Source of the DNA: Octopus vulgaris
Lineage: Eukaryota
NCBI GenBank assembly: GCA_951406725.2
Contig: OX597828.1
Location: forward strand, 62,310,001-62,374,000
DNA: 64,000 bases
Direction: 5' to 3'
This document shows positions 12,914 through 33,290 of the stretch, one piece after another. Both the position numbers and the translations under genes were made by a program. Position 1 is the stretch's first letter. Every line of letters starts with the position of its first letter. Below the pieces are notes generated by a model. It ran no database searches and was not told where the DNA came from. It saw only the letters and a list, made by a program, of their open reading frames with translations.

Positions 12914-15900
12914 TCATAGGATCATGTTCAAAGTGGCTTCGTCATTCATACGTGCCATCCTTGCTACATTTACCCATCTTTTTTTGAAACAGTCGCTAGA
13001 CAAAACTTGCCTCTCTACTCTCACCTTCTTTTTCAAGTGATACTTGAAAAAGTTGATGAGAGATCGACCAGAGAGGAAAGTGTTTGTCTCTAATCCTTTC
13101 AGACGCGTCCACCAGATACATTCTTTCGCCATAGCTACAAGTATTATAAAAATAGCTCTTCCTTCCCGTTTGAAGGAAGGAGGCGTGACGATATTGACGA
13201 TAGACTCGGCTGATAAACCGACTCGTCCCACACGTGACTGCAGTCGTTCGACATAAGCCCACAGGTCGGAAATGGTTGGACACTGCACGAGTGCGTGCAT
13301 AACGGTTTCGTCGCTCTGACCGCATCTCGGGCAGGTCGGCCTCGTGTTTCTCGAACCATGTCTATAGAACGGGTAGCGCTTCTCGATAGCACTGCCAGGC
13401 AAGGGATCTCTGGAAATTGTCCATAGGTCCCGGCCTGAAAGTCGTCTTGAATAGGCGGGTCAAGTATTCCTCGTCGACGCCCAGGTTCGCCCCGAGATCG
13501 TCGTCGTACATCCCCTCCACTAATCCCCTATAAAATGCTTTCGTGGTAATGCAACTGCTCAAGTTCGACCCAGGACGGCAGAGTTGCTGGAGAGCAACGC
13601 GACACTCGCGGTGCCATTCGCCCTTCCTCGACCTCTTTTTGATCCACGATTGCAGCTCGGTCATGGACACAAGTTGCAGGGAAGCGCGCCGCACAAACAG
13701 CGACCACACCTGCTCACCGTCGTCGACGTAGAGCTGGAGATGTCGCAGTCTCAGCGCGTGTCTGCGCATCATCAACCACGGCATGCCCAGCCCTCCTTTC
13801 AGCGGGTGTTGTCAGCAAATGGATCGCCTGACCATCGGAACGTTTCCTTTCCACAAGAAGCGGAAGAGAATGCGTTCCAGTTTGGTGACGGTGGGGTCGG
13901 GACAAGGCACGACGGTCAGGTGGTAGTTAATGACGGATGCAATGTACGCGTTCGCCACCTCCGCCCGACCTTTTAGGAACAGCTTCCTCTCGGCCCATTG
14001 CCTGCAGAGAGTGGCCGCCCTACTCGTCATCTCGTCCCAGTTCTTCTCCGTTTGCAGGTCTGGACCGAACCAGACCCCGAGCAATTTGACCGGCCCGTCC
14101 GTCCAGCGTCCCACTACTGAGGCGCTGGTGGACGGCATGGGCTTGCTTCTCCAGGCGCCCAACCGCAAGCCCACCGACTTTTCTCGGTTGATTTTTGCTC
14201 CTGTCACCGCTTCGTAGTCTTGCAGTGTCTCGCCAACTAGTTCGATGTGCTCGTGGCTAGACACTATGACGGTGACGTCGTTCGCGTATGCGGACACGCT
14301 CGTCCCGCACCCCAGTTCTCGCGGCATGCCCCTCAGCGTCGCCAGCTTCCGCAGTAGTGGCTCGAGAGTCAATACGTACAGAAGCGACGAGAGGGGGCAT
14401 CCCTGACGGACCGAACGTGCAATGTCAAAAGGCAGCCATCCAGCCGCGGAATATGGGATTGAAGCCGGCCGCCATGAGGACAGCCTCCAAGTATCGATGG
14501 TCTACCCTATCGAAAGCTTTGGATTGATCCAAATTGATCAGCGCCCCACTCATGCCAGGTTCCTTAGCTACCCTGTCTATGATGTAGCGCATCAGATTGA
14601 GGATGTCATGGATGATCCGGACCGGCACGGCGCAAGTTTGCGCCTTATCGACCAGTTTCTCGATGACAAGCGCCAACCTCTTGGCTAACACTTTGGCCAA
14701 AATTTTCAAGTCTGCATTGAGCAGAGTAATGGGCCTAAAGTTATCTATAATGTCCCCCTTGTTTGGATCTTCCATTAGCAGCGTTACGGTTCCTCGGCTC
14801 ACAAAACCGGGTATGCTTCCGTTCTGCTGCTAGTTGCAGTACACCGCTGCTAAGACGTCTCCAAACAAGTCCGGCATACAATTGTAAAGTTCGTAGGGCA
14901 GACCATCCAAACCCGGCGATTTGTCCCTTGAGCATCCTGCCATCGCATCCCTCACTTCCGCCGCCGTGATGGCACCTTCGCAGCACTCCGCCTCTCTTGT
15001 CGAGAGTCGTGGCAGGCTGTGTAGGTAGTCACTGAAGTCCAACCTGCGTTCTCGCTCTCCACTCCTCCCGAACAGTCGGGCAAAATGTTGCTGAAACGCT
15101 TCTCACCACTTTTCTCCGCCACCCGGGCCGCTCTCTCAGCTCCAACACTTTCCATCTTTAGAGTACGCATCCTAGCCCTGACAGCACACCCTTCGTATTT
15201 GGCGTTGAAGTGTTGGTCGAGGCCCAACCTCGCCGCCAAAACGACGGATGTGATGCCGCTTCTAATTGACTCTTCTAGCTTCTTAACTAGCTCACCCTAT
15301 ACTCTGTTTCTATCTATGACTAGTGCTTTGCTGTACCTAATCGCTTCTGCTTTTACTGCTCTCTTGAGGGCAAACCACCGTTTGTTGTTGACGATGGCTG
15401 CTGTCAAAGCCCTCTTTACTAGTGTGCTAATTCGGTTTCTGAAAACCTGTCTCGACGGGAAAGCTGCGTTCAGTTTCCAGTAACCAGGACCCTGCCTATG
15501 TGCCTTATCTAAGTCTAACATACACGTCACAAGTTTGTGATCTGTGTAGCTGTCCTGCATAGTATCCTATCTAGATACGATCTCGACGACCCAATGCGGT
15601 TGCTCCATGTCCACGTTGGCACATTTGGGTGGTCGAGTCGGTACCTGTCAGACAGTTGAAAGCGTCTGAGCAGGTCTCTGAGGCATTTACATCCCCGTCT
15701 ATTTTCGTCTCTCCCCAAGTAGTCTAGATGCGTGTCCAAGGTAGCTGCCGTCGACATCCAGGACAACCAGTCTACCCTCTGGGTCTATGAATATCGTCTT
15801 TACTTCGAGATCTAGACTCTTGCGAAAAAGTACCACCGTGCACCTACCGCCCATCCTCGGTAGACAGGGAGAAAAATTAATGTTAAACCGTCCGCCAAAC

Positions 15901-18450: not shown

Positions 18451-20816
18451 TGGTACGTACAGTAAACTTCAAATTATATTCCTTAGATATGTTCATCGAG
18501 TCATTTCTGAATTAACTCAGAGTGTGGACGTTCATGTTGTAGATGGAAAATTGCTAAACTGTCGCCTCTCTGCAGCCCGAAACAATGGAATGTTATTCAT
18601 TGTGGGTGTCTAGGATGAAAAGTTTCAGGAAATCGCTCGAATAATGGATCATAATCACTTTTGAGCCGATAAGAACCGTTGTGATAAAAGAGCAACTTCC
18701 TGGTTCTTATCTTAATCTTTTTCGAATTCTGGGGTTTCCAGAAGAGAGATTTAAATAAAGATGGAGAAATTTCTTTGTATTGAATTGTTTGAGCCTGCGG
18801 AGCCGTTTGTTTTGTTATACTATTGAACCAATGAACAGCTTCGTTGTGATTGGTTCAATGCGAAGCGCTTTTGATCGTAACATAATCTGTAAAGAATCGA
18901 CACAAAAGAGTCAACGTTGAAACCTTTACAAGGATTAGAAGGATAAGAATAGTTTATCTGAAGGATTACCATTGGAAAAAGAGTCAAATGGATGTTCTTT
19001 CCGTGATGAGAAAACTCTGTCAACGGCAGATCTCCCCACCTTTTGTAATCAAGAGATACAGAAATGTGTGTGGTGTCCATCATACCTTTCTTAAGGGCAT
19101 TCGCAGGTAAAAATGAAATAATAGTTACGACTGTATATCAAACCCGAGTAGTAAACCCATCAACGACTCATCATGAACTCTTCATCATTTCCCTTTGAAG
19201 GAGTAAAACATCAATGCATTTTCTCTAACAAAACCCGACCACAAACTAGGATTACGTGGAGTTCAACACTCTCCTAAAGAAAATGATTACATTTACTGGG
19301 TTTTATTCAATTGTGGAGTTTGTTTGTTTGTTTGTTTTGTACCTCCTGAAAGCAAACCCGGCTCGCGTGTTTGCTTCGTCACACAATCAGAGAAAACGAA
19401 TCCAGCGCCATTGTCTAACCGTAATCATCAAAACACGTTTTCGTGTCATCAGGGTCAAGGGTCATTCACAACCCATCAATAACCAGCAGAATAGGTTCCA
19501 CCTAAATCTTTATGTTCGACAGATGGGTGGACGAGTGGATGGGCTGGTGGATGGGCGGGTGGATGGATGTTCACATATTTATTATCACACTCGCTGTTGT
19601 TGCTTAAACCTCGGTCGTCTCTGATCGAACCAACACATGAACAAAAGCGTTCCAGTCGTGACCATCCTGTTTTTTATTCTGTGTCTCTGGGACTACATCA
19701 TCCGATGTTTCCTACCTATTTGATGACGGTAAGGATGCGATTTTTAGCCTGGTTTGGCAGCTGTTTTTAGTAAACCGCATGACCATGCAGAAGTTCCGAG
19801 AAGGAAAGGCCGGGATAACAAAACCAGGGACAAAGAGAAGCCAAGGCAAACCAGTGCAATGGTGGTGTGAAGCAGGATTAGTAATATCATTGCGTGATAG
19901 CAGAGTGTCGTTGATGTGTAACAGATTGCTCAGTGAAGCGCGATCAGACGGGATCACCTTCTTGACACATATCAACCGAGTCTTTCTCGACACTGTATCG
20001 TGTGACACGAGACACGAAACAGCGCGTCCGGATCAAATTCTGTCTTAATCACACACATACACACAACAACAACAGCAACAGAAACAACAACAACAGCAAA
20101 TATCAAGTTGTTAATAACCCATGTTTTGAAAATACACCCACCTACATACATACCTACGTATATATACTTATGTATATGTATGCATATATACATATGTACT
20201 TGCATACATACACACATGTATACCTACATATATAAGTACGTACATACATATGTACGTGTGTGTGCGCGTGTATATATATATATTTCCTATATTCTACCAA
20301 CACCACTATCAACTCTTACCTCTACATTGGATTTTCTTTACCCTTGGATACTTACCATTGGCTGCACCTCTCTTTCACGGATCAAAGTGACTTTGTTATT
20401 GATGTGAAATCCTTAAAAAATATACCATGACGTCTATACATTTCTAACTTTGAACTCTCAACCTTGAACTTGTTCGCATAAACTGTCCCGTTCGTTTTAT
20501 TTTTATTTTCTCATATATTATCCCTTTTTTTTACATTCATTTCATACTTTCCACATTTTCCTGCAGTTTTGTCCTCTTTTCCGTCGTTTCTTCCTTCTCT
20601 GGATGTCCATACTCTGTTTCCTCTGCCTGCACCCCCTTTTTTTGCCTCCCCCTCTCTCTGCTTCCCTTCTTTCTTTCCTTTTTCCATTTGCCCCATCTTC
20701 TCCGCCTTTATTTTCTGCCCCTACCGCTTTTTTTATCTAGTTTTTTCATGCGATTGTTTTTTTGTTGTTTTTTTTCGAACGTTTGATTTTTCCCCCTTTT
20801 TTTCGCTATCCCATCA

Positions 20817-23323
20817 TGCCTGATTATAAATCCTACCTCCTCACTATCCACCACCGTTTGAAAGATCACCTCCGCCCTCTCCCCCTAAACTGTTTTCAGC
20901 CGCCCATTAATCTCTCTCTACTTCTTTTTAAAAAAACCCGCTTCTCTAGCCATGTCTCTTTCCTAAGCCGCTGCCTACATCACCGACTCATCCCTAAAGG
21001 TTTCCGCCTCCACTTCCACCCTGCTCTCCACTCACATTCTTCCATCTTACCCATACTCCGCACCACATCTTACCGCCTTATACAGGCCACCATTCGCTCC
21101 AATCTCTCTAAACTACATACCATCAACCGCCTTCTTCCTCCTGCTTTCCTCACGTTTTTCTCCTCTCTGCCGCCTTTCTATGCTCCAAACACGCTACGCT
21201 TCATTATCCATTTGAATCACCTCTTCCATCAATTTCTTTCCGATACCAAACTTCGTAAACTCCAATCACTCCTCAATTCCACCACACCCGACGCCACCAC
21301 CCCAACTCCTCCACTACCCTTCTCCCCTCCTGATAGGTTCCATCCACCCACACCTAACCCCACTGCCCCTCCTGATAAGCTCCATCCACCTACACCTAAC
21401 CCTACTGCCCCTCCCAACCACCCCACACACACCTCCCCAATCCCTCCCCCTCAGACCTCCACGAGCCCTACCACCCCTCCTACTTCTATTCCACCCACCC
21501 CTTCTCCACTTCCGTCTGTTGTTACCATTCCCCCCGATCTTCCCCTCTCTGCGGCGGAACGCTCCGTCCTTAGTAGGGGTCTGCGTTTCATCCCCCTCAC
21601 TCCATCCTGTAAGGAATTCCAGACGCGAGTTGATGTCCACAGCTTTGTGCGCCGCGTCCGGTTGGGTGCGCATTTCCGCGACTCACCACCCATATCCAAC
21701 GAAGAGAACTGATTCACTGACCTGGGCCGCCGACCATCCCCGTGGACGCCTGCCCCCGGCCAGTTCCTAGCAGTGGATCTTTTCGCGGGCGTATGTCAGC
21801 GTGCATTGGAGCGGTTCAACTTCTCCAGGCGCCAACGCCGCCTCAACATCTCCCCGGCCGAGCTCTCGGCTCTTCGTTCCCTCCAACGGCGCGCTGACAT
21901 TATCATCAAACCGGCTGACAAGGGTGGAGCTGTAGTGGTGTGGCGCGCGGACCTCTGCAGGGCCGAGGCTCTCCGCCAACTCAATGACACCTCCTTCTAC
22001 TCCCCTCTGTCCTCTAACCCCACACGTAGCTACCAACAGACGGTATCCTCTACTGTCCGCGACCTCATCTCGTCCTCCCGTCTCCCCCACACCGCATCCA
22101 ACCTAATTGTGCGAACCCCACGTACCCCCACCATTTACTTCCTCCCCAAAATCCACAAACCCAACAACCCTGGCCGCCCCATCGTCTCCGCCTGTAACTG
22201 CCCCACGGAGCTCATCTCTAAATACCTCGACCGTGTCCTTGCCCCCCTAGTGGCGTCTCTTCCCTCCCACATCCACGATACCAACCATGCTCTCTGGCGT
22301 TTCAACTCTTTCTCCTTTCCTCCCGGCTCCTCCAAAATCCTTTTTACTATGGACATTCAGAGCCTCTATACCGTTATCCCTCACCACGAAGGACTGCAGG
22401 CACTTCAACACTTTCTTGACCTCCGCTCCAACCCTGAACCTGACACCTCCACACTCATTCGTCTGGCCGAACTTGTCTTTACTCTTAACTGCTTCTCGTT
22501 CACGGGCGAGTTCTACCATCAGATCTCGGGAGTGGCCATGGGAACGCGAATGGGCCCCAACTATGCGAACCTGTTCGTTGGCTATGTTGAGGCCCAAATA
22601 TTCTCTAATTTCACTGGTCCCACTCCTGAACTATATGGTCGTTACATTGACGACATTATCGGTGCTACCTCACTCTCCCGTGAACATCTAGATTCCTTCC
22701 TCTCTTTCGTCCAATCTTTCCATCAAGCCCTCCACTTCACTTCCACTATCTCCAACACCTCTGTCTCCTTCCTCGACATTTCGGTTAGCATTCTTCACTC
22801 CACTCTTACCACCTCCATTCACTACAAACACACAGACTCACACTCATACCTCAACTTCTCTTCCTCCCACCCAGAACACACCAAGCTTTCCATCCCCTAT
22901 TCCCAATTCCTCCGTCTACGTAGGCTCTGTAGTGACGACCATGACTTTGAGACTCAGTCTCAACGTATGGCTCACCACTTCATCCTACGTGGATACCCCC
23001 TCACCACTATCCACACCGCCCTTGCCAGAGCACGTTCCGTGGACCGTGTATCTGCTCTCTCTCCCCGAACCCGCCCTGTAGTCTCCCGCCTCCATTTTCC
23101 CCTCACTTACCACCCCACGACCCTACCTCTCCAACGCACCATTCTTCGAGCTTTCCGTCATCTCCAGTCCGACCCGTCCACTTCACACCTCTCCCCCCTC
23201 CCCCCTCCCCCTCCCCCTCCCCTCCCTCCTCTTCCCTCATCTCCTCTCTCTACACTACACCATACGACTTTACACATCACATCATATATACATACACACG
23301 TCCAGACCTCTCATACGCACTAA
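20817..23323 (+). pseudogene. PLE polyprotein (N-terminal domain and RT), one in-frame TGA at 21710-21712, C-terminally deleted
   Basis: ORFs 20762-21712 and 21773-23323 share a frame. Motifs FLSRC..LIPKG, VLSRGLRFIP, IKPADKGGAVVV, YFLPKIHK..PGRPIVS, MDIQSLYTVI, QISGVAMGT, RYIDDI, FLD, SIPYSQFLRLRRLCS. Homology ends in a poly-C/CT tract near 23190. Confidence 0.9.
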
Positions 23324-23551
23324 TACTCTCTCATACACACACACACACTCTTCTCATACATACACACACACTCTTATGTTGGAGCGAGGTCATTTAACCC
23401 TATTATCAACCCTATTATCTCCCCTAATTTCGCTCTTGCGTCTCACGTTTGATCTTTGACTTCTGGCCGAAATCAGATCGCCATGTTGATTCGCTAGCCT
23501 CTGCACGCATATTTTTTTTCTCTCCTTCTTTCTGTGTTTTTTCTCTGTGTA

Positions 23552-23589
23552 TCTTTCTGTTGAAGAGCGTAGGCTCGAAACGTTAAAGA
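23552..23589 (+). ncRNA. Minimal type I hammerhead ribozyme (PLE-type, variant core CUGUUGA)
   Basis: TCTTT-CTGTTGA-A-GAGC gtag GCTC-GAAA-CG-TT-AAAGA; palindromic ACGT replaces stem III. Confidence 0.65.
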
Positions 23590-23716
23590 CTTGTTTTATT
23601 TATATTTCCTGAGCGCCATACTAATACAATTGTTTGTTTGTATTCCACCTGCCTTCGTCTTTTGTTTATTTCCGTAAACCTGCCTTCGTCTTTTGTCTAT
23701 TTTCATAAAGCTTCCC

Positions 23717-23795
<79 letters not shown>

Positions 23796-23903
23796 GGATA
23801 CAGATCGTGTATCAATAGCTATCTTGATGGCGGTGGCCTCATGGAGCTGACCATGGCAGCGATTATTCCTATATCTATAAGAATGCCATATTAATATGGC
23901 GAT

Positions 23904-27556: not shown

Positions 27557-27757
27557 TACGTATATATATATATATATATATATATATAACAAAAGGGACA
27601 TTAGCCATTTGAATGTGGCTAGGGACAGGGCAGGGCGGTGGGGGTGTTACTGATGCATTTAGCCCCAGGCGATCATCAACGTCACCAGATAGGCTGACAC
27701 CATCACGGTGTCCTCTATCCTGCAAAGGGAGATCATTCCCCGAAGAAGCGGATGCCA

Positions 27758-27802
27758 CATACGGACCCAGGTTTCGAGGTGTTTGCCTCTCGTCAACGTA
27801 TG
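27758..27802 (-). ncRNA. Type I hammerhead ribozyme, copy 1
   Basis: Exact reverse complement of 27961-28005. Confidence 0.85.
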
Positions 27803-27960
27803 GTAGGCACCGCCCCTCGACGAACGACTCTCTGTGCAGGATATTTATATATAGATTTTCACGTAAATACATTTACTGATTTCGAAAATCTGTTCGACAG
27901 CAATAATAATTCTCTAAACGAGATATAGACAGCAGTCGTTCGTCGAGGGGCGGTGCCTAC

Positions 27961-28005
27961 CATACGTTGACGAGAGGCAAACACCTCGAAACCTGGGTCC
28001 GTATG
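27961..28005 (+). ncRNA. Type I hammerhead ribozyme, copy 2 (predicted cut after C27999)
   Basis: Stem I CATACG/CGTATG; core TTGACGA; stem II GAGG-caaaca-CCTC; GAAA; stem III ACC-tg-GGT; GUC triplet. Confidence 0.87.
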
Positions 28006-28317
28006 TGGCATCCGCTTCTTCGGGGAATGATCTCCCTTTGCAGGATAGAGGACACCGTGATGGTGTCAGCCTATCTGGTGACGTTGATGATAGCCTGGGG
28101 CTAAATGCATCAGTAACACCCCCACCGCCCTGCCCTGTCCCTAGCCACATTCAAATGGCTAATGTCCCTTTTGTTATAGAGCAGTTACTGTCTATATCTC
28201 GTTTAGAGAATTATTATTGCTGTCGAACAGATTTTCGAAATCAGTAAATGTATTTACGTGAAAATCTATATATAAATATCCTGCACAGAGAGTCGTTCGT
28301 CGAGGGGCGGTGCCTAC

Positions 28318-28362
28318 CATACGTTGACGAGAGGCAAACACCTCGAAACCTGGGTCCGTATG
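28318..28362 (+). ncRNA. Type I hammerhead ribozyme, copy 3 (predicted cut after C28356)
   Basis: Identical to copy 2. Confidence 0.87.
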
Positions 28363-28669
28363 TGGCATCCGCTTCTTCGGGGAATGATCTCCCTTTGCAG
28401 GATAGAGGACACCGTGATGGTGTCAGCCTATCTGGTGACGTTGATGATCGCCTGGGGCTAATGTCCCTTTTGTTATGGAGCAGTTACTGTCTATATCTCG
28501 TTTAGAGAATTATTATTGCTATATATATATATATATACATATATACATACACACACATATGTTTAAACATTTATTTCTACATAAATGCATTGATATAATA
28601 TATATATGAGTGTGTGTGTGTGTATTTATACATACATATATTTGTATGTATGCGTGTATATACATATAC

Positions 28670-32120: not shown

Positions 32121-32506
32121 TGATGCACTCGCTTCAAACTGTTTGATAGCAAAAAACTCGACTCGTACAAATTAATCTACGACCAGTCTGGAGCATTTAT
32201 TTTCTGTAGCGTTTTTTGCCGACTTTAACACAAAGCTTCATTGCATAGCCAGCTGCCAAATTGTCGTAACGTCTTAACTGCATTCTGCAAACTCGTCAGC
32301 TGTGGCAAGCAGTGTAGGATGGGATCAAAATGTTGTTATGGCCGTCTCCTTCAATCTGGAATAACTAAAGGTGGCAGGTCAGCTTATTAGTAATGATATT
32401 CGTAAAATTACAATAGCCTCTAGGACAATTATAACTGTCTCTCCTAAAAATAATTCCCAAACTTATATATATATATACATACTAGTATATATATATATAT
32501 ATATAT

Positions 32507-32927
32507 CTTTACTCTTTACTCTTTTACTTGTTTCAGTCATTTGACTGCGGCCATGCTGGAGCACCGCCTTTAGTCGAGCAAATCGACCCCGGGACTTATT
32601 CTTTGTAAGCCCAGTACTTATTCTATCGGTCTCTTTTGCCGAACCGCTAAGTGACGGGGACGTAAACACACCAGCATCGGTTGTCAAGCAATGCTAAGAG
32701 GACAAACACAGACACACAAACATACACACACATACACACATAAATATATATATATACATATATACGACAGGCTTCTTTCAGTTTCCGTCTACCAAATCTA
32801 CTCACAAGGCATTGGTCGGCCCGGGGCTATAGCAGAAGACACTTGCCCAAGATGTCACGCAGTGGGACTGAACCCGGAACCATGTGGTTGGTAAGAAAGC
32901 TACTTACCACACAGCCACTCCTGCGCC
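32507..32927 (-). mobile_element. SINE family A, full-length young copy
   Basis: GGCGCAGGAGTGGCTGTGTGGTAAG...GGTTCAGTCCC head, body, and GACTGAAACAAGTAAAAGAG tail; (TA)n flanks. Confidence 0.9.
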
Positions 32928-33009
<82 letters not shown>

Positions 33010-33029
33010 TGTGTCTGTGTGTCTGTGTG

Positions 33030-33240
33030 TTTGTGTGTCTGAGTTTGTCCCCCTAGCATTGCTTGACAACCGATGCTGGTGTGTTTACGTCCCCGTCACC
33101 TAGCGGTTCGGCAAAAGAGACCGATAGAATAAGTACTGGGCTTACAAAGAATAAGTCCCGGTGTCGATTTGCTTGACTAAAAGGCGGTGCTCCAGCATGG
33201 CCGCGGTCAAATGACTGAAACAAGTAAAAGAGTAAAAGAG

Positions 33241-33243
<3 letters not shown>
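33030..33243 (+). mobile_element. SINE family A, 3' half (inverted relative to 32507-32710)
   Basis: Direct reverse-complement match. Confidence 0.9.

Positions 33244-33290
<47 letters not shown>

Follow-up and report, generated by a model that had tools for sequence, protein, structure and literature searches.

A conserved end-pairing helix and Penelope-type insertion anatomy in a hammerhead-bearing retrozyme of Octopus vulgaris

A short non-coding repeat in the genome of Octopus vulgaris carries a hammerhead ribozyme on a long base-paired extension of its stem I, which raises the question of what this extension does and how the repeat is copied. The locus lies in a window of 64,000 nucleotides (assembly GCA_951406725.2, contig OX597828.1, positions 62,310,001 to 62,374,000 of the forward strand), and coordinates below are those of the window. 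The original prediction, made from the sequence alone, held that the hammerhead caps a rod-like stem which would hold both ends of a cleaved monomer together for ligation, giving a viroid-like circle. By its sequence the 357-bp repeat is a non-coding genomic non-LTR retrozyme, a class already described. The unit has a GC content of 47%, and its longest stop-free frame, in the forward arm, spans 103 codons. The whole insertion (27585-28520) is located within (TA)n and consists of an inverted arm followed by 1.6 forward units. A summary of the features is shown in Table 1.

Table 1. Features of the retrozyme insertion in the window, and of family E elsewhere in the genome
Position	Strand	Feature	Basis
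27585..27932	-	Inverted arm, stopping at the short 3' end (unit position 179); holds a third hammerhead core (27764-27796)	
27934..27999	+	First forward copy, truncated at 5' end, with part of a rod arm and a hammerhead core (27967-27999)	
28000..28356	+	Monomer of 357 nt, bounded by two predicted cleavage sites; 28277-28323 pairs with its first 48 nt	fold
28051..28067	+	Hairpin GACACC/GGTGTC, with compensatory changes between families	
28142..28161	+	Hairpin TAGCCA/TGGCTA, conserved and lying just before the short 3' end; candidate signal for RT start	
28179..28221	+	'Tail' of 43 nt separating the short from the long fixed 3' end (unit positions 179 and 222)	
28277..28314	+	5' arm of stem I extension, in 3' end region of monomer	fold, covariation
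28318..28323	+	Hammerhead stem I, 5' strand CATACG	fold, covariation
28324..28356	+	Second forward copy of type I hammerhead core (U3.G8 variant, stem II of 4 bp); cut predicted after GUC ending 28356	fold, RF00163 26.7 bits
28348-28355	+	Self-complementary loop III 8-mer	
28357..28404	+	Stem I 3' strand (28357-28362) and extension 3' arm (28364-28404); start of next unit	fold
28357..28520	+	Last partial unit with internal deletion (unit positions ~105-157); ends at long 3' end in (TA)n	
L293:4437-4990, L303-L332		Retrozymes of family E, with 360-bp unit, U3-A8 core and palindrome of 6 nt; ends close to unit positions 177 and 238	

The segment 28277-28404 folds as a single hairpin capped by the hammerhead, with a minimum free energy (MFE) of -63.6 kcal/mol (z -6.5), which none of 500 dinucleotide shuffles attained; for the reverse strand the energy is -53.4 (z -4.5). 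All four arm pairs of the original prediction were found where they had been placed. The extension, hereafter the rod, pairs 28277-28314 with 28364-28404 and consists of 35 bp (31 Watson-Crick and 4 G·U), or 41 bp if the 6-bp hammerhead stem I (CATACG/CGTATG) is included. The anticipated length of about 45 bp was thus too high, as was the impression of many G·U pairs, with 4 among the 35. The structure proposed to follow from them, one that is strand-specific and formed at the RNA level, is nevertheless supported: the arms pair better on the + strand than on the - strand in 17 of 18 family representatives, and RNAalifold gave -26.3 versus -17.5 for the two strands of the family alignment, a gap that is small under DNA parameters (-27.7 versus -24.7). 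The data support the rod as a selected, strand-biased structure at the RNA level.

In the predicted fold of the cleavage-to-cleavage monomer the stem pairs the 5' with the 3' end, as had been proposed, most rod pairs having p >0.9 and the weakest 0.54. Folded as a circle, 28000-28356 is more stable than all of 200 shuffled controls (z -4.0), in line with the proposal; for its reverse strand 1 of 200 shuffles was as low (z -3.2). Beyond the rod, the remaining 229 nt show no more stability than shuffles (z -1.1); hence the excess structure of the monomer is the rod, a rod running through the whole monomer is unsupported, and the viroid-like label fits only loosely. The hairpins GACACC/GGTGTC and TAGCCA/TGGCTA are present, with equivalents in most of 7 family members examined, and the former carries compensatory changes across families. 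The GATAG/CTATC helix that had been added to them uses bases of the terminal 9-bp helix of the rod (28401-28404), so that the two are mutually exclusive.

The genome comprises 2.8 Gb, in which a generalised core pattern has 1,163 exact matches versus 0 control matches; the patterns of family A and family B match 472 and 235 times, respectively. Families B, C and D were traced from loose ends of public contigs and a weak match in locus L012, and family E from an nhmmer match in locus L049. The 360-bp unit of family E has 722 pattern matches versus 13 control matches. Full monomers, recovered from families A and B and not from C or D, measure 352-363 nt. Public contigs of four runs, which are guessed to be RNA, cover the unit; two contigs from one run are 387 and 390 nt long, close to one unit plus 30, a length expected of an assembly cycle and equally of a tandem array. 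Retrozyme insertions at L176 and L177, L091 and L194 are apparently duplicated within larger inverted or tandem segments. The window also contains, at ~23796-23890 (+) and with a (TA)n run on either side, a fragment that is similar to family E retrozymes (nhmmer E 1e-4) and truncated at its 5' end.

Conservation of the rod was assessed in an alignment of 18 representatives of families A-D, hand-picked from 81 cores that form 17 clusters at 93% identity; the alignment excludes two 5'-truncated copies and one carrying a deletion. RNAalifold recovers the rod, and both sides have changed in 13 of its 35 pairs. For the 29 consensus pairs, which belong to the rod and to stems I and II, pairing holds in 96% of 522 cells, versus at most 47% in slid controls. 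Compensatory changes on both sides affect 12 of these 29 pairs, including 9 of the 21 within the extension; the four families are related, so that covariation cells overstate the number of independent events. The count of compensated pairs was matched by 15 of 500 shuffles, and the pair at columns 39-108 looks like a register artefact. When arms were swapped, each of the 18 5' arms paired best with a 3' arm of its own family, with cognate means of -42 to -52 kcal/mol versus -18 to -38 across families. The arms are only 51-72% identical between the four families, yet the rod is kept. Compensatory pairs also segregate inside family A (GC 73 / AT 19; AT 66 / CG 17) and family B (CG 28 / TA 13); the reference pairing is lost in 11 of the 24 variant pair types that are common in family A, some of them resembling register shifts. 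In family E, an unrelated rod of ~50 bp gave z -3.6 to -9.3 when 7 copies were folded. Six hammerheads of an autonomous Penelope-like element (PLE) with a 781-aa protein have no rod (z -1.1 to +1.3), their AT-rich pairing, where present, being not above shuffles. The sequence comparisons indicate that the rod is under selection.

Rfam matched Hammerhead_1 three times in the insertion (RF00163, 26.7 bits, E 5e-4), below the gathering score of 34; at gathering level there were 0 matches in the window, and no Rfam ribozyme of opposite polarity was matched. The core departs from the type I consensus C3UGANG8A...GAAA...NUH by a U3.G8 wobble replacing C3-G8, and relatives have U3-A8 or C3-G8. Among 269 collected cores this position is U.G in 170, U-A in 89 and C-G in 10. 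Activity has been reported for U3-A8 (PMC3088659). A pattern that leaves loop III free finds a self-complementary loop in 98 of its first 100 matches, as counted by eye, and the loop is self-complementary in 261 of the 269 collected cores, a figure inflated by loop-specific fetches; at least six different palindromes occur. The 8-mer at the window locus self-pairs by way of two G.U pairs at -9.8 kcal/mol, compared with +2.9 for its own 2-bp hairpin. For the circular monomer an inactive fold is predicted: the probability of stem III is 0.001, and that of pairing between the GUC triplet and G5-A6-C7 is 0.95.

The covarying palindrome makes it likely that cleavage needs a double hammerhead. In such a model A15.1 pairs with U16.1 of the other unit, so that stem I must form across units, and, given the topology set out in PMC4209133, the rod that closes the monomer would then be built from the 3' arm of unit 1 and the 5' arm of unit 2. 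For 4 of 5 natural dimers this swapped fold is better than two monomer hammerheads by 9-11 kcal/mol and lies within 0.3-5.2 of the MFE; for the window's own dimer its predicted probability is 0.60. In the dimer from L236, monomer hammerheads are favoured over it by 13.5 kcal/mol. The MFE structure of 4 of 5 dimers has local rods and a locked core, and local inactive rods dominate the ensemble in 3 of 5 (P 0.85-0.99); co-transcriptional folding would also favour local rods over the swapped fold. Within the double-hammerhead fold, the end-joining pairing is predicted to form before cleavage.

The insertions were compared at 166 loci, comprising the best matches and the first pattern matches, with duplicates, three composite loci and family D excluded, a sample biased to long copies. 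Two outward-facing arms are present in 103 of them. The 3' ends of these two-orientation insertions are short and long in 79, short and short in 2, long and long in 0, and truncated or unclassified in 22; the short+long insertions end at unit position ~179 on one side and ~222 on the other. Sixty-six of the 79 lie in (TA)n, and the other 13 all have duplications of 6-16 bp, mostly at AT-rich targets. No LTR layout was seen in the insertions examined. At most loci the copies cross the cleavage junction without gaps, and 133 arms, from a sample selected for cores, run through it once (97), twice (32) or three times (4). Among the hallmarks described for PLEs are a truncated copy in inverted orientation and a tail at one end (PMC8557442), and the length of the PLE tail is described as the distance between two RT start sites (PMC11167929). 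The insertions combine a partial tandem and an inverted 5'-truncated copy with a one-end tail and an AT-rich or (TA)n target. Their anatomy is of the Penelope type, and it is on this anatomy that their assignment to the non-autonomous PLEs rests. Neither the inverted arm and tail nor the related families were mentioned in the original prediction.

Candidate autonomous partners are present in the genome. The young family with the 781-aa RT + GIY-YIG protein (L098:2126-4468, L095-L097) has intact frames and carries a CX4CxxC motif ahead of the nuclease, a feature reported for Neptune and Nematis (PMC8557442). Its pLTR contains a U3-A8 minimal hammerhead with a 6-nt palindrome identical to that of family E, and the element has two 3' ends ~40 nt apart and (TA)n flanks. 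Its tail, a CTCG/CGAG hairpin followed by TATTAT, loosely resembles the retrozyme tail by eye. A second PLE family is very abundant (13,119 candidates), its copies being 98% identical and ending in (TA)n. A broken copy of this abundant young PLE, ending in (TA)n, is located in the window at 20741-23716 (+), with the RT at 21713-23323 (RVT_1 E 9e-8); in pLTRs of other copies a minimal hammerhead-like motif can be made out by eye, its stem II being 4 bp long and its palindrome ACGT. BLASTN and nhmmer comparisons of the unit with 30 GIY-YIG loci, 18 longer regions and 20 second-family loci gave no similarity to autonomous PLEs and yielded only separate retrozyme insertions. A 15-nt match in L054, considered as partner homology, sits in coding sequence and was taken as chance.

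The units of one insertion share haplotypes. Mismatch at informative sites within insertions is 75/5,517 (1.4%) in family A and 50/1,090 (4.6%) in family B, versus 28% and 35%, respectively, between insertions; this pattern fits a single monomer template, and also a homogeneous parent array. One of 154 insertions, L025 (L025:1255-2016), has 11 differences when read on the ribozyme strand, of which 9 are A>G and none is T>C (binomial p 2.4e-7). Two of the A>G sites recur in all three copies, that is, in both arms and both tandem rounds, four recur in both copies covering them, and three are covered once only. Three of the changes lie in a 27-nt stretch that the genome contains only at L025, even if one mismatch is allowed. 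ADAR enzymes have a 5'-neighbour preference; a 5' G precedes 0 of the 9 sites versus 23 of the 90 adenosines of the unit, which is weakly in line with it. One C>T change is present in two + rounds of L025 and absent from the - arm. L025 looks as if one edited monomer RNA had been copied repeatedly, the simplest reading of a single case, and its sequence would fit a circle, a re-used linear monomer or later gene conversion equally. Changes fixed in all units show no general A>G excess (21 versus 17 T>C, p 0.63). A general A-to-I signature as the source of the G.U pairs was not supported, with singletons at 16 A>G versus 19 T>C in family A and 14 versus 17 in family B; all differences pooled give 120 A>G versus 85 T>C.

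The explanation that we consider probable, though well short of certain, takes up the end-joining role of the original prediction: the conserved end-pairing helix would close the excised monomer for circularisation by a host ligase, and a Penelope-like RT would copy it into the genome. The tandem arm would be transcribed; a single hammerhead would be unable to form its stem III, and two units would pair through the palindromic loop III in a predicted nested double-hammerhead fold that swaps the stem I partners, the 3' arm of unit 1 meeting the 5' arm of unit 2. Two cuts would free a monomer with a 5'-OH and a cyclic-phosphate end, both of them clamped beforehand by the 41-bp helix, and an RtcB-type ligase may close it, by analogy with axolotl and mussel retrozymes. 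Within the circle an inactive pairing is predicted to lock the core, and the circle would thereby stay closed. A Penelope RT/GIY-YIG protein would then cut AT-rich DNA and prime from both ends at two RNA sites 43 nt apart, the RT passing the ligation junction one to three times. Two-end priming at two RNA sites combined with read-through of the junction would produce the inverted arms with a short and a long end that are seen in the insertions. A more specific version is offered tentatively, as a conjecture that may well fail: the repeats would be RNA circles copied in a rolling fashion by a Penelope RT from both ends of one DNA break, loop III would force the rod-closing swap prior to cleavage, and L025 would be the fossil of an A-to-I edited circle copied three times.

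If the uncleaved tandem transcript were the template, with cleavage rare, the rod would be a local hairpin for RNA stability, ribozyme silencing or binding of the PLE protein. We regard this as rather unlikely: it agrees with the locked-core local rods that are the MFE in most dimers, with element ends 179 and 222 nt from the cut site and not at it, and with the anole PLE PAc, for which hammerhead activity was dispensable in vitro, hammerhead mutants not impairing insertion and uncleaved RNA being the main substrate (PMC11167929), but it leaves unexplained the palindromic covariation of loop III, the A>G recurrence in successive tandem rounds of L025 and the constant unit length of 352-363 nt in families A, B and E, and 5'-truncating copying of linear arrays would be expected to shorten them each generation. 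Unlikely, too, is a monomer that is excised and remains linear, its stem stabilising the hammerhead and protecting the monomer while the RT jumps the clamped nick and re-uses the same template. Conservation of the rod, the shared haplotypes and the L025 pattern are explained equally well by such a monomer, and no circle has been observed for this repeat; on the other side stand the gapless crossing of the junction at most loci and the other non-LTR retrozymes, for which dimer cleavage is reported and which accumulate as circles, their monomers being ligated by RtcB up to 80% in vitro (PMC7229834).

Complementarity of the arms could be kept by DNA-level processes, such as conversion or template switching within an inverted repeat, without any function in RNA; the reverse strand folds well (z -4.5) and the element is prone to inversions. 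However, G.U wobbles and bulges make the arms imperfect, 17 of 18 representatives favour the ribozyme strand, and the helix is always continuous with stem I, including the rod of different sequence in family E, all of which makes this account very improbable. The size, the ribozyme and the pairing of the ends resemble those of viroids, and a true viroid-like RNA that replicates RNA-to-RNA and is integrated only secondarily would have all three. Its interior is not rod-like (z -1.1), Rfam gave no ribozyme match of opposite polarity and the families diverge as dispersed retrotransposon insertions, so that we give this origin hardly any credence.

Among known systems, the repeat resembles the metazoan non-LTR retrozymes of coral, mussel and axolotl/newt satellite 2 (PMC7229834) in its tandem non-coding units (150-450 bp in that description), GC <50% and type I hammerhead. 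It shares with the amphibian members a weak palindromic helix III needing dimers, and with the class duplications >4 bp, in the 13 insertions outside (TA)n, and a predicted circle in which the hammerhead region is self-paired. Unlike the retrozymes described there, the core here is mostly U3.G8 or U3-A8, and the arrays are short and dispersed, with inverted arms and a tail; the word 'inverted' is absent from the main text of that paper. The excess structure of the octopus unit is confined to the stem I rod; the figures of that paper may show similar stems, and those of the papers cited here may show extended stem I helices or U3 cores. Circles are reported in that work, whereas the unit described here is known from genomic sequence and predicted folds.

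With the EN+ PLEs (PMC8557442, PMC11167929, PMC4209133) the insertions have in common partial tandems with an inverted 5'-truncated copy, a one-end tail, AT-rich or (TA)n targets and a hammerhead with palindromic helix III. They differ in that the unit is without an ORF and without detectable similarity to the pLTRs examined, and in the tail, of 43 nt (~60 nt in family E) versus 30-40 nt in the descriptions of EN+ PLEs. The unit has a long GC-rich rod, which the pLTR of the autonomous 781-aa PLE is without. Xenopus retrozymes have been argued to be non-autonomous PLEs from co-occurrence and pLTR homology, and 8 of 9 of their dimers did not cleave (bioRxiv 10.64898/2026.07.22.740005). The same conclusion, that PLEs mobilise retrozymes, is reached here; that work concerns vertebrates, and no use of tail or inversion anatomy was seen in the passages compared, whereas the link in the octopus is made by insertion anatomy without pLTR homology. 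Chlamys elements such as MRC1 are likewise non-autonomous PLEs, with pLTRs and head-to-tail multimers, but resemble their autonomous partner at the 3' end and belong to a clade described as being without canonical hammerheads (PMC8557442). Hammerhead viroids and viroid-like satellite RNAs (Avsunviroidae; in part PMC7761336) are similar in size, ribozyme processing, the double-hammerhead option and the use of a host ligase; unlike them, the unit is genome-encoded, has a ribozyme in one polarity and an interior that is not highly paired. A search of titles and opening parts of abstracts, in a collection that leaves out most subscription papers, found no description of these families, of tail anatomy in a retrozyme or of an edited retrozyme template.

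Should the circular reading hold, it would provide genomic evidence that circles are the retrotransposition template of animal retrozymes, mobilised in trans by Penelope proteins. Retrozyme circles are known, while the circle as template and the supply of enzymes by PLEs are still proposals, and the role of the hammerhead in Penelope elements is open, given its dispensability in the one in vitro system mentioned above. The main interest of the family lies in its Penelope anatomy, in the rod that separates the retrozyme from the autonomous element and in the edited-looking insertion L025. It offers a compact test, with a selected end-joining stem that is absent from the autonomous element examined, a ribozyme predicted to act only as a dimer and having natural loop III variants, two mapped candidate RT start sites, and young candidate partner PLEs with intact frames.

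Other repeats were encountered alongside the retrozymes. Another hammerhead family, an AT-rich repeat inserted in (TA)n, is present at L092:1600-1720 (+) and in L042 (- strand, downstream of a PLE); its hammerheads have a CUGAAGA core, a long stem II and a near-palindromic stem III. The window further contains long inverted repeat pairs at 32464-33287 (197 nt at 90% and 108 nt at 89%) and fragments of a LINE-type RT element at 12914-15483 (-) (RVT_1 E 2e-10), a similar frame of 751 aa being present in L094.
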